In this document: piece after piece, positions 23,140 through 29,701 of the stretch
Layout: each line of letters starts with the position of its first letter
Position numbering within the stretch: position 1 is the first letter of the stretch
DNA from: Macrostomum lignano
Taxonomy: Eukaryota
Reading direction: 5' to 3'
DNA length: 59,678 bases
Assembly: GCA_002269645.1 (NCBI GenBank)
Contig: NIVC01002023.1
Coordinates: 1 to 59,678, forward strand
Notes under the pieces: model-generated
Told to the model about the DNA's origin: nothing
The model's input: the letters and a program-made list of their open reading frames with translations, nothing else
The model's database searches: none
Position numbers and translations under genes: made by a program

Positions 23140-23769
23140 TTAAATTACAGTTCTTTTTTCTTTGCTGATAATCTCAAACTGGTAAGGCTGATTCCACTTG
23201 TCATAGCAAAGATTAACGAATTCCTCCTGTGAAATCTTTCTGTTTGAGTTTTTTGTTGGATTTATGAAATAGGCAGGCGCAATGACCTCATTGTAAAATC
23301 TTTTTAACCTGTCCTGTGGAATGGTTGGAAACAGGAGAATCAGATTGCAGTTCCCACGAATTGTTTTGTTCGGGAGCTCGAACCAGTTCTGTGCAATGTA
23401 AATTACATTACAATTGTTATGTCGTCCTCTTGTAAAATAGTTTTCTATCTGCTTCTGTGGGCCTGTCATACAATCATCAAAGACGATCAAATGCTTTCTC
23501 CCCTTTTCTAGCTCATCTGGATGGGGTAGAAGTTTGGTCTTTGGATCAACCTGCGGATCTCCATAGGTGAACACTTTAATGTTCTGCCATTTTTCATTGT
23601 CTTTGAGGTGCTTTGCATATTCGGTAGCTACAATTTCTGGGTTACTGGGAAGGCTCATTTGGTTATTAAAACATTGAATAATGTCCTCTTTGTTCAGTTT
23701 GTTTTGCAATCCAGAAATCAGCATTTTATACTCATCTTGATACAGTGTGGGAGAGTAGATGTGCAGAGT
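23140..23769 (-). pseudogene. Packaging ATPase (FtsK/A32-like), C-terminal part
   Basis: TLHIYSPTLYQDEY..., Walker B LIVFDDC, FTRGRH and YIAQ. In frame with the N-terminal piece once the LINE and one TSD copy are removed. Confidence 0.92.
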
Positions 23770-24254
23770 GTCATAGTCGATACACGCGAAGGTGTATTCA
23801 GCACGCCAGTGAAGTATGAGACAGACCAGGCCTAAGGGCTACGGTCTGCGATGCTTCACGCCTGCCCCTATATTCAGCAGGTCAAGGCTGGAGAGGGAGG
23901 TCTGCACCCGCTATTTGCCACTGGCAGCCGCAGACCCCCCCCCCTCACGCTGTTTCACAAGTCGACCCAGGGTACTCGTCCCCGCGTGTGTTCAAGGCAG
24001 ACCCTAGGGCTGCTGGACAGACTGGGCTCCGACGCTGGCGACCCATCCAGTGGCTTCGGCCGAATTTGGGTATGCGGGTCTGGCTTGCCAGCCTGCAGGC
24101 CGTGGTACTGCTTAACGTACCCCCTAATGCCTAAGGTGTTTGACCGTGCCGATGGGCTGGAAGGCCGGGGGGTTGTCCGGTCGCTAGCGGTCCTTTTCTT
24201 TTTCTTCTTTCCTCTTTCTTTTGTGACTCAGCTCACTCCTTCCCGCTTTCAGCT

Positions 24255-25721
24255 ATGGCGTCATCCGCCTCTTTAACCCCCGCTGAAGCCGGGGCCCCGG
24301 CAACTCCGGCCGGTGACTCTGGCACCAGCGCCGCCCCACCGGGGGCAGATGGGCTTGCCGCCGGCTCGGCTGGTGACATGCCCGCACGCGCAACCGGGCC
24401 CTCCGCTGAAGCCCGACGCACCCGCAACCAACGCCGCAACGAGCGGCGACGGCGACTACGGGGTACTGCGGGCCGGCCACCGGCGGAAGGGGAACCTAGG
24501 GAGGGCGAGGCTGCTGTTGGGCCGAAAGGAACCACAGCAACCCCTGCCCCCCAGGATACAACCCCCGCTGGTGAGCCACCCAGTATACCTGCTACAAGCG
24601 CGGCCGGGCCTTCGGGAACCGCCGCCACCAACTACGCCTCAAAGGTCAAGCTCCAACCGGCGGTCATCGTCTTCGGGGAAGAGCAGGACCTCACGGCCGA
24701 CGAGCTCGACAGTGCCTGGCGCACCATCGATGCTGCGCTCATCGACCAGCTCCTGGCGGGCCGCCCTGTGAGCGTGGTCAAGTCTGCCAAGACCGACGGC
24801 TGCATCTTCATCTGGTGCAGCTCGGAGGAGAGCAGCCGCAATCTACGCGAGCTTCTGCCAAAGCTGAACTGGCCCAAGAAGCTCGGCAAGCTCGTCTTCG
24901 CCAGCGAGGGCGAACGACAGAAGACCCAGCGCTTTCGCGTCTGGATCCCGGCCGGCAGTGCCATTAAGTCCGGAGATCAGCTTAGGCAAATATTGCTAAA
25001 GCTGCACCCCGACCTTAAGGTCAACGGGCTCCTACACCACGCCACTTCCCGCAAGGAGAAGGGGGCTACGGTGATCCTAGGGCTCTCTGATGACTGGGCT
25101 AAGCGCTTGCCGCCTAAGTCCACAATTCATATTGGTCTGACTCAGCTGACCATCCTCCGTTGCGAGGAGCGGAAAGCTGATGAAGCCAAGAATGCCAAAG
25201 CTTCCGAAACCGGAACTGGGGCCCAGGCTCCTCCGGCAAAGAAGCCGAGGCAAACGGCCGATCCTATGCCCGGTAAGGCAGTTCGCGCTGCTGAAACCGG
25301 AAATCGCAATCGCAGACCCGCCAGGAGCACCCGGAGGTCCGGCCTGATCCAGCGCGCGCTGGACCAGGCCAAGAACCTTCGTGCGCATCGTGAGCGGGCC
25401 CGCGCTTCTCGCGCTCCACCCCAACAGCCAGAAGGCCAGACTCTAAGCGGGGAGGCTCCGACCGACTGGTTCGAGTCTGTGACTCACCAGGAGGCTGGCG
25501 CCACCCGCATCGACCTGACCGACGAGGCAGAGGGGACGGGCAGTGACAGCACCGAAGCACGCAGGAGAGGCGACGGTAACGTCCACGCTGGGCTCACGTC
25601 CGCGGAGGACTCCACAGCCACCCTAACTGCTGAGGACGCTGAAACTCCCATGGAGGTCTGCGGGTCACCCACCACTGAAAAGGAGGAGGATGACCTGCTC
25701 AACGATTCCCCAACTGCGTGA
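24255..25721 (+). CDS. LINE ORF1p, 488 aa (low-complexity ends, central DUF4780-like region)
   Basis: FRVWIP...LLKLHPDL...VILGLSDD...IHIGLTQLTI resembles LOA-clade ORF1. No CCHC knuckles seen. Confidence 0.8.
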   Translation: MASSASLTPAEAGAPATPAGDSGTSAAPPGADGLAAGSAGDMPARATGPSAEARRTRNQRRNERRRRLRGTAGRPPAEGEPREGEAAVGPKGTTATPAPQDTTPAGEPPSIPATSAAGPSGTAATNYASKVKLQPAVIVFGEEQDLTADELDSAWRTIDAALIDQLLAGRPVSVVKSAKTDGCIFIWCSSEESSRNLRELLPKLNWPKKLGKLVFASEGERQKTQRFRVWIPAGSAIKSGDQLRQILLKLHPDLKVNGLLHHATSRKEKGATVILGLSDDWAKRLPPKSTIHIGLTQLTILRCEERKADEAKNAKASETGTGAQAPPAKKPRQTADPMPGKAVRAAETGNRNRRPARSTRRSGLIQRALDQAKNLRAHRERARASRAPPQQPEGQTLSGEAPTDWFESVTHQEAGATRIDLTDEAEGTGSDSTEARRRGDGNVHAGLTSAEDSTATLTAEDAETPMEVCGSPTTEKEEDDLLNDSPTA

Positions 25722-25723
25722 TA

Positions 25724-28700: not shown

Positions 28701-29428
28701 TAAACGCCAAGGTTACGAGAGGAAAGACTATTGTCATCCACTCCGACAGCCAAGCGGCCTTACAGGCCCTTTGCCACACCACAACGAACTCCCGGACAGT
28801 CGCCGACTGCGCCCGGCAGCTCAACCTCCTGGCCAGAAGCAATACTGTCAGGCTGAAGTGGATCCCAGGGCACGCAGGGTTTCCGGGGAACGAGCTGGCA
28901 GACACCCTCGCCAAGAGGGGCGGCTCTGGCTCTTTTTTCGGCCCTGCCCCCCTGGTCCCTATGCCCTTGACAGTCATCAATCGTCAGATCGACGACTGGG
29001 CTGACTCCCTCCACAGGGACAGATGGGCGGGCACCCAAAACTGCCGGCAATCTCGTGCCGCGGTTCCTTGCCCGTCTCACAGGCTCAGAAACATCCTTCT
29101 GAACCAGAATCGGAAGGATATTCGAGCCCTTGTCATGACCCTTACCGGCCATGGCTACCTCGCCAGGCACTGCTTCCTCCGAGGCGACCTCGAGAGCGAA
29201 ATTTGCCCCTTTTGCGAGTGCGACAATGAAGATGCTCAGCACTTTGTCTGTCACTGCCCTTTCTTTAACAGAGACCGGCTACGCTACCTCGGGCCGAACC
29301 CGTCCATTGACGAGGTTTGCCAGCCCGACAGCATCCCACGGCTCATCCAGTTCCTTCGGGCGACTAGACGAGCCAGTTTCTTCCCAACGGAAGATCACGC
29401 TGCAGGACGGACCGGCGGACCACCCTGA
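25724..29428 (+). CDS. LINE ORF2p: AP endonuclease, reverse transcriptase, RNase H, C-terminal CCHC (~1234 aa)
   Basis: APE: QINLQH, VQEPW, GDINAHH, SDH. RT: KAPGPDG, FRPISLTS, GSPQGGVLSP, YADD. RNase H: YTDGS, HSDSQAAL, WIPGHAGFPGNELAD. Zinc finger: CPFC...HFVCHC. No stops. Confidence 0.97.
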   Translation: MISNQGIHCLQINLQHCVAASVNLMRYAELDKPGLILVQEPWTLRGKPQNAPAGYNCFYTYPREANQPPRACIFASKTLSAWLRSDLSNRDICVIQSEDLLPGKTTLIASVYLPGDAAVVPRALATLVELCSAKNYELMVAGDINAHHTHWGSTGINQRGEDLLAYVASTTLEFCNSGSTPTFDNGRWSEVIDATLATPRLYQSIGAWRVLPVSSLSDHKFISFNLMAARSATRVMWRRNARNTDWETFGLALKEFHRSPGQPSTITSCREADECATVLTETLTAAFEASCPLKAYKGKKSAPWWNPELGNLRRRAKRLHRRATKTKSPADQTAYHEAIHEFKRQVRNAKAQKWRQYCEELEGSRPTSRVVKALTLDKMSKLSSVKRTDGTSTDNPGETLDVMLTAFFPNEPANQTTPDHSEGGHALAASIITEDRIVRAANSFKPFKAPGPDGIVPALLREAVKCPGFLRKLCSLLRACITLGYVPQAWTEAKVIFIPKPGRPDYHSIKSFRPISLTSSLVKLMERLVLWRLLSVELKNKPLSENQHAFRAGRSTESALHVLVDKLEKAVLGSGFALGIFLDIIGAFDNVLFEAFRRALCERLTHSHLTRWIMYMISHRTATASLLGYQRTVPVCKGSPQGGVLSPVLWNMVIDELLRDVRPDPILKVGYADDVTAVASGPSPDTLRDLLQNFIYAAEQWADRCGLRLSETKTAAIMFTSRTKWQIRPLTLYGREIPFCKQTKCLGITLDHRLNWSPHVQTKAKKAFAVLAQLRRAVGTTWGLTPKRLWWIYTAMVRPAISYGGLIWASALQIKTCLEALRRAQGRACRTIMSAPPSAPYDGLNAFLNIPPLDIFVRREAAKTARRLADAGIRIQPHRAMAKRKLLPHADLCLKDLRDSGGLHVLSDGEPRTLNLFQRYKVTIPSRDAANDHWNFQEVHCYTDGSIKDGRAGFGVCIIINGRVIATHAQHTGRLSTVFQNEVLAISSCAAELNAKVTRGKTIVIHSDSQAALQALCHTTTNSRTVADCARQLNLLARSNTVRLKWIPGHAGFPGNELADTLAKRGGSGSFFGPAPLVPMPLTVINRQIDDWADSLHRDRWAGTQNCRQSRAAVPCPSHRLRNILLNQNRKDIRALVMTLTGHGYLARHCFLRGDLESEICPFCECDNEDAQHFVCHCPFFNRDRLRYLGPNPSIDEVCQPDSIPRLIQFLRATRRASFFPTEDHAAGRTGGPP

Positions 29429-29530
29429 CCGGCCCCACGCCTCTGCCTGTCTGCGGGCCTTCAGGGGCTAGCGGAATGGGCGACCCTCGCCTCCCCGCTG
29501 TGTCTACGGACCACCCTGCAGCTAAGTCAA

Positions 29531-29701
29531 GTCATAGTCGATAAAGCCAGGTCTAAGAAGCATGTTAAAGACTCTGAATGTTTTACCTGAACCTGACGAA
29601 CCAACAACAATGCATCTGAAGTGACTCGGGATTGACTCATGATGAGAAAACTTAATCTGATTACGCGTCCAGTGAGGATTGAAGTCGCTTGAAAAGTCCA
29701 T
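29531..29701 (-). pseudogene. Packaging ATPase, N-terminal 57 codons with Walker A
   Basis: The minus strand reads MDFSSDFNPHWTRNQIKFSHHESIPSHFRCIVVGSSGSGKTFRVFNMLLRPGFIDYD. Confidence 0.9.

Follow-up and report, generated by a model that had tools for sequence, protein, structure and literature searches.

The window analysed here, 59,678 nt from Macrostomum lignano (GenBank assembly GCA_002269645.1, contig NIVC01002023.1, positions 1-59,678 of the forward strand), contains a 20-kb Polinton whose packaging ATPase gene is split by a long interspersed nuclear element (LINE). We consider it highly probable that a young LINE entered, by untargeted target-primed reverse transcription (TPRT), a neutral and independently defective Polinton lying in a region dense in transposable elements (TEs). 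A TPRT-type insertion breaking the packaging ATPase had been proposed in a preliminary description of this DNA, and it is supported by the target-site duplication (TSD), the open reading frames (ORFs) of the element, which are uninterrupted, and the split gene.

A LINE within the packaging ATPase gene

The LINE is bounded by two identical copies of a 13-bp TSD, GTCATAGTCGATA (Table 1), which cannot be extended on either side; this 13-mer occurs exactly twice when both strands of the whole window are scanned. The 5748 bp between the copies have a GC content of 0.60, against 0.39-0.40 in the 2-kb flanks, and are oriented antisense to the packaging ATPase gene. The ORF2 product matched the Pfam families for APE, reverse transcriptase (RT) and RNase H, all above cut-off, and a scan with motif patterns detected catalytic-type motifs plus the C-terminal CCHC. 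The duplication and the APE-RT-RNase H element announced by the preliminary description were thus recovered. Its term full-length is borne out in part at the 5' end: the ORF1 start agrees with that of the sister gene model P0041, and further gene models contain 5' untranslated region (UTR) sequence from position 23894 on, a comparison that begins ~110 nt into the element. No other copy or solo fragment of the LINE was found elsewhere in the window by blastn and tblastn.

The two ATPase pieces were translated separately from the minus strand (29701-29531 and 23769-23140). As described earlier, removal of the LINE joins them into one frame of ~266 amino acids (57 + 209). A search with the C-terminal piece recovered 19 homologues among 59 candidates, 11 of the 19 carrying PF04665. 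The N-terminal piece aligned without gaps to residues 1-57 of all eight closest homologues (P0001-P0008, 68-86% identity), and the C-terminal piece begins at residue 58 or 59 of the same eight (60-75% identity); given this 57/58 register, no ATPase residues were lost at the break. The predicted model of P0001, a natural homologue (pLDDT 84), matched the folds of STIV B204 and FtsK. This likeness came from the fold search, a PDB sequence search with P0001 giving no real match. On the model, the break site lies just ahead of strand 58-62; the P-loop helix precedes it and the Walker B strand 148-153 follows. The PF04665 homologues and the P0001 fold identify the gene as the A32/FtsK-HerA packaging ATPase of Polintons.

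The gene is presumably null in its present state, because the 59-aa upstream product would lack Walker B, the downstream ORF lacks Walker A, and the upstream frame meets a stop after two LINE codons, with no plausible splice donor after Walker A. Splicing of the LINE out of the ATPase message was considered and rejected: past Walker A, a single GT precedes the stop of this frame, and its surroundings are poor for a donor. This early stop also leaves the Walker A piece short, which explains its absence, noticed before and confirmed here, from the list of ORFs of at least 100 aa, and serves as an annotation warning, such pieces being too short for ORF callers. The position of the insertion between the Walker motifs is unremarkable. 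The interval from Walker A to Walker B covers 109 of the 266 codons, so that a hit in the gene falls there with a 41% chance; the gene makes up 5.6% of the Polinton, ~75% of which is coding. Directly upstream of the ATPase start, within the Polinton, seven copies of a 21-bp repeat were observed (29744-29889).

Table 1. Coordinates of the LINE, the split ATPase gene and the other features of the host Polinton in the window
Feature	Positions	Strand	Remarks
LINE, I-group, LOA-like architecture	23783-29530	+	5748 bp; TSD, Pfam, motifs
LINE 5' TSD copy	23770-23782	+	13 bp; sequence comparison
LINE 5' UTR	23783-24254	+	472 nt; pyrimidine tract and AG just before ORF1 ATG
LINE ORF1	24255-25721	+	488 aa; DUF4780-like core, no CCHC knuckle
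LINE ORF2	25724-29428	+	1234 aa; APE, RT, RNase H, C-terminal CCHC
LINE 3' UTR	29429-29530	+	102 nt; short AAGTC-type repeat at end
LINE 3' TSD copy	29531-29543	+	13 bp; sequence comparison
Packaging ATPase, N-terminal piece	29531-29701	-	57 aa; Walker A; frame stops two codons into LINE
Packaging ATPase, C-terminal piece	23140-23769	-	209 aa; Walker B, RGRH
Polinton/Maverick (adintovirus-like)	14647-34704		20,058 bp including LINE; ends AGTAG...CTACT
Polinton left TSD	14641-14646	+	TCCTTA, 6 bp
Polinton right TSD	34705-34710	+	TCCTTA, 6 bp
Polinton left terminal inverted repeat	14647-15117	+
Polinton right terminal inverted repeat	34274-34704	-
Phospholipase A2-like gene	16912-17361	-	PF08398, E 1.7e-13
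rve integrase	17393-18388	+	open frame, 331 aa
ORF with adenovirus protein X-like segment	18405-18863	+	PF05829
Protein-primed PolB, broken	19375-21873	+	homology to ~21783; ends after motif A, before B and C
225-aa ORF	21686-22363	-	tail antisense to PolB end
Probable major capsid protein	31556-32842	+	open frame, 428 aa; double jelly-roll-like PF21738, E 7e-4, below cut-off
Candidate minor capsid protein	32865-33728	+	open frame, 287 aa; assigned by position; look-alikes in the Atlas belong to viral clusters without names (0.98)

The layout of the element corresponds to that of a non-LTR retrotransposon, one without long terminal repeats (LTRs), of the APE-bearing I group: APE, RT and a downstream RNase H, a TSD, a 3' end of short repeats and no LTRs. 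Its APE domain matched TRAS1 ORF2p (E 7.5e-12). Placement of RNase H downstream of RT is a trait of the LOA clade, necessary but not sufficient for membership. The ORF1 product lacks a zinc knuckle and matched DUF4780 directly at E 0.023, below the Pfam cut-off, but a profile built from ORF1 homologues gave E 8.6e-14 against the part of P0094 that is DUF4780 (120 PolB controls gave E values of at least 2), and the homologue P0282 carries DUF4780 at 2e-35. A DUF4780-type ORF1 may be a further pointer to the LOA clade. Judged by its sequence, the element is an I-group LINE with an LOA-like architecture, an architecture that is common across the I group. Short tandem repeats also follow ORF2 in three distant relatives (L001, L003 and L004), and folding of the window LINE's 3' UTR was not significant (z 0.11).

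ORF1 closes with three consecutive stops, TGA TAA TGA (25719-25727), and the ATG of ORF2 shares letters with the last two of them in TAATG, a stop-start pentamer described for SART1 (PMC3894237). Since the first stop sits one codon earlier, translational coupling of the two ORFs is only suggested. At 24190-24254 a long pyrimidine tract and an AG, together resembling a splice acceptor, lie 2 nt ahead of the ORF1 ATG, and the gene model P0041 joins upstream sequence to ORF1 near this AG. The site could be a cis or a spliced-leader acceptor; spliced-leader trans-splicing presumably occurs in M. lignano. In two further models, P0272 and P0273, ORF1 is only ~35% identical to that of the window LINE, and translated 5' UTR pieces are 88-96% identical to 23896-24116, which suggests an exchange of 5' UTRs between LINE subfamilies or the nesting of one in the other.

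Lesions of the host Polinton independent of the LINE

The host element has terminal inverted repeats (TIRs) and a 6-bp TSD, an rve integrase and a PolB homologue, as expected of a Polinton/Maverick, the PolB being shortened. The TIRs measure ~430-470 bp and differ by 4/258, 5/53 and 6/118 mismatches in their three main blocks, a total of 15 in 429 aligned nt, plus indels. Of the features of an intact autonomous Maverick, neither the adenain gene nor an unshortened PolB carrying motifs A, B and C was found.

None of the matches to 120 PolB homologues reaches past 21783. With loose patterns, motifs B and C were recognized in 101 of the 120, and the window match ends before B in 99 of these 101; with strict patterns it does so in 38 of 38, leaving a median of 337 C-terminal residues unmatched. 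Motifs B and C are absent from every frame of the window, and we also considered that the PolB C-terminus had been moved or turned round within the window, for which no match was obtained. The PolB lesion, which removed the catalytic C-terminus, is independent of the LINE. Where the PolB homology stops, the convergent 225-aa ORF lies antisense over the end of PolB (21686-21873), and this run-in probably marks an internal-deletion junction near 21783. An in-frame stop at 19372-19374 precedes the PolB frame; 47 of the 120 alignments start upstream of its first ATG and 7 cross the stop, which may be a second PolB lesion. A 128-aa ORF at 18988, examined as a possible PolB N-terminus, had no phmmer match among the 120 homologues.

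No Pfam protease was detected in 13 ORF or ORF-piece queries from the Polinton outside the LINE and in 4 smaller ones, a search that a divergent adenain could escape, and a crude protease motif scan gave nothing convincing. The idea that the LINE disarmed a working virus is moot, because PolB breaks off ahead of motifs B and C and the searches for a protease gene were negative. The product of 32865-33728 is a candidate minor capsid protein, assigned by its position. Near both ends of the gene block lie a 66-bp hairpin-like inverted repeat (16770-16907) and a related 70-bp copy (33934-34012), which are possibly regulatory.

Sister copies of the LINE and the choice of target

The search with ORF2 scored 8000 candidates and gave 549 matches, of which 120 were listed; 11 of those listed are named M. 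lignano gene models. In four models (P0020, P0022, P0027 and P0041) most ungapped segments are 92-100% identical to the window LINE; P0027 and P0041 each contain one segment at 67%. In a quick tree of the RNase H-side region (of 42 candidates and the window, the 41 mostly unnamed rows whose matched residues number 300 or more), three close sister models grouped with the window copy at 100% support; P0041 was placed by its ungapped identity. One sister copy is identical to the window LINE over 498 columns. The non-LINE parts of the four models encode a ZIP transporter, a leucine-rich-repeat (LRR) protein (P0027 and P0041) and a part without Pfam match, and none of them maps to this Polinton. 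P0027 and P0041 probably represent the same locus, which leaves about three independent close loci.

In subfamilies further removed, the LINE adjoins kinase, fibrinogen, ABC-transporter, WD40/SAM and gypsy-like sequence. The model P0261, of a subfamily 72-75% identical, continues past the end of the 3' UTR, and the sequence it enters is not that of a Polinton, although a splice there is conceivable. The sequence following this LINE was tried as another retrotransposon's endonuclease and rejected, with no Pfam family and no phmmer match to the fetched proteins. A scan of genome contigs gave 12 LINE loci at 22-37% identity, 8 of them on contigs of 1.3-6.4 kb, and no convincing TSD was seen around two of these distant relatives, L001 and L003. 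Eight of the contigs (L001-L008) are eukaryotic LINE contigs inside bacterial genome assemblies, a placement that is probably bin contamination. Polinton proteins were matched in none of the 120 listed ORF2 matches, 23 further ORF1 matches and 12 distant contig loci, the contig loci being weak evidence. Because gene models are biased to copies near host genes and may skip AT-rich Polinton ORFs, no enrichment statistic is given. On the flanks seen in these models, targeting of Polintons by the LINE family is not supported. The preliminary description had held that copies in unrelated sequence would refute targeting, and matters have come close to that point, by way of gene models rather than DNA flanks; its alternative suggestion, that the insertion may be chance, agrees with the dispersal of the sister copies.

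The 3' end of the LINE, ...TAAGTCAA, runs into a TSD that starts with GTCA and so prolongs its 5-nt period by 4 nt. If this tail is placed at each Polinton position in turn, a continuation at least as long, at some period between 2 and 10, arises at 1357/28516 of them (4.8%), and GTCA itself begins at 104/28568 (0.36%). The gtca microhomology between tail and target noted earlier is thus present, and it is modest, arising by chance at 0.4-5% of positions. The overlap fits pairing of the tail with the primer during TPRT, and would amount to a local priming bias without a targeted gene. TPRT in general and the relaxed specificity of APE are treated in PMC2881922.

Taken together, these observations point to ordinary nesting of mobile DNA, since the Polinton is broken elsewhere and sister copies adjoin unrelated genes. 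A recently active, dispersed LOA-like LINE without fixed target specificity would have entered the resident Polinton: its APE would nick one strand, the short AAGTC-type tail of its RNA would pair with ~4 nt of the primer so released, and a second nick, staggered from the first, would yield the TSD. The insertion would have persisted because this Polinton copy is selectively neutral and in any case lacks a working polymerase. Diverged TIRs, set against near-identical sister copies of the LINE, suggest a Polinton that predates the LINE burst, a comparison that does not order the PolB and ATPase lesions. Several points weigh against an untargeted insertion. The tail/target overlap is mildly non-random; the site falls on conserved ATPase positions, D55, Y56 and L59 being invariant in 16 homologues; the flank evidence is at the protein level, from automatic gene models and about three independent close loci; the search for an empty-site version of exactly this Polinton had no success, the best of the 19 ATPase homologues being 75% identical; and there is a precedent in the Ngaro retrotransposons of Cafeteria burkhardae, 91% of whose type 1 copies lie inside EMALEs (PMC8547959). 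The overlap, the invariant codons and the Ngaro precedent are also what a hyperparasite might display, whose family prefers Polinton DNA through APE recognition of a conserved ATPase site or ORF1-guided tethering; targeting of multicopy sequence is a known strategy, with R1 in the same I group (PMC4640811). We hold such a preference to be very unlikely, given the near-identical copies joined to unrelated sequence in four gene models, the lack of Polinton proteins among the relatives listed, the continuation of P0261 beyond its 3' UTR, and the lack of a second copy in the window, which leaves n = 1. Equally doubtful is its fullest form, in which an APE-type, LOA-like flatworm LINE family would prefer Polinton DNA, prime with its AAGTC-type tail at the conserved ATPase site and spread in trans-complemented PolB-less Polintons, as an animal counterpart of Ngaro in EMALEs with a defined sequence target. 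Were targeting true, the LINE would be a retrotransposon that parasitizes an endogenous DNA virus of an animal in a sequence-defined manner, and would offer a testable route for horizontal transfer of LINEs.

A chance landing might also have been followed by copying of the PolB-less Polinton in trans, with the LINE as cargo. The TIRs, the 6-bp TSD and the open integrase frame would allow this, in Pieris mannii a 3.2-kb LINE (Daphne) cargo is common to two polintons that lack polB (bioRxiv 10.1101/2025.02.07.637071), and trans-complementation is discussed for polinton-like viruses (PLVs) (PMC12220804). This course of events appears unlikely to us, as the TIRs have diverged, whereas the LINE equals a sister copy over 498 columns; if replication keeps TIRs alike, their divergence would fit an older resident Polinton, and no second composite copy was seen. 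A repeat mis-joined into the Polinton during assembly is conceivable in so repeat-rich a region, but the perfect and unique 13-bp duplication, the proper 3' end of the LINE, the gap-free register of the ATPase with its homologues and the absence of any N in the window make such a chimera hardly credible.

Known systems and genomic surroundings

Retrotransposons nested in virophages, PLVs and PolB-less polintons have already been published, and the present case is a further instance. As in the Pieris mannii polintons, an active LINE family is nested in an animal Polinton with TIRs, and loss of PolB together with a LINE echoes that case. The Pieris mannii cargo is present in two polintons, implying amplification after insertion, whereas one copy is seen here; moreover, the Macrostomum LINE is apparently complete with its TSD and breaks the ATPase, and PolB is shortened rather than absent. 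The Ngaro elements resemble it as GC-rich retrotransposons of ~6 kb that break an AT-richer endogenous virus-like element, but they are tyrosine-recombinase elements whose preference rests on counts, whereas the present LINE bears an APE and those of its copies that are available speak against a preference. Cryptophyte PLVs contain nested retrotransposon-like elements, a situation termed hyperparasitism (PMC12220804); these are likewise GC-rich RT elements within coding genes, with inactivation expected, and they differ in having protist hosts and in often lying between direct repeats of a few hundred bp.

With the LOA clade, which includes LOA, TRIM, Bilbo and Lian as well as CiLOA, the window LINE shares APE-RT, RNase H downstream of RT and two ORFs, but no flatworm appears among the hosts named in the relevant passages of that work (PMC2790886). 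With R1, TRAS and SART1 it has in common the I group, an APE endonuclease and the TAATG overlap; it differs from the R1 clade in having no demonstrated repeated target and no CCHC knuckle in ORF1. Target-specific non-LTR families belong mostly to the early-branched, Tx1 and R1 groups (PMC4640811). The statement in the preliminary description that target preference is known for R1/LOA-group elements accordingly stands for the R1 clade; none of the passages found gives LOA-clade elements a target, and those of PMC2861651 and PMC3506448 have no bearing on targeting. The host element resembles Alpha adintoviruses and Polinton-Mavericks in its TIRs, 6-bp TSD, rve integrase, PF03175 PolB, FtsK/HerA-type ATPase, probable capsid genes, and phospholipase A2 and protein X-like genes (PMC8502044, PMC8097293), and departs from them in its shortened PolB, its split ATPase, the adenain not found and the location of the phospholipase A2 and protein X-like segments in separate ORFs. 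Of vertebrate Maverick loci, 96% are degraded, large insertions being among the causes (PMC8097293). A literature search, covering few subscription papers and no supplements, found no report of this insertion or of a Polinton-targeting LINE, and nothing related was found for Macrostomum lignano combined with Polinton.

A repeat present at 12232-12756 also occurs in an inverted copy, which the Polinton interrupts. This copy surrounds the Polinton at 14391-14646 and 34705-35192, and the repeat family fills 11168-14600 and 34747-36728. The arrangement is a triple nesting, of the LINE in the Polinton and of the Polinton in the repeat; it is a clean example, which matters little as it stands, and it documents for M. 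lignano a Polinton of the Alpha type together with an active LINE family of the I group. Without the LINE, ~0.56 of the window is repeat- or TE-like (Polinton alone 0.27), a share taken from rough intervals, one of which, of 567 bp, is without Pfam support. NCBIfam and tRNA scans added nothing. An AT-rich segment at 47441-51313, with 222-bp inverted ends of 97.7% identity and no ATG-started ORF of at least 100 aa, is probably a non-autonomous DNA transposon. ORFs of a Gypsy-type LTR retrotransposon (protease, RT, RNase H and integrase) lie in shifted frames at 54208-58498, with an older fragment at 5597-7155. Host genes are represented by LRR and PDZ exons on the minus strand (39942-42451), which we take to belong to a LAP-family-like gene, and by a TLC-domain ORF on the plus strand (8805-9410).

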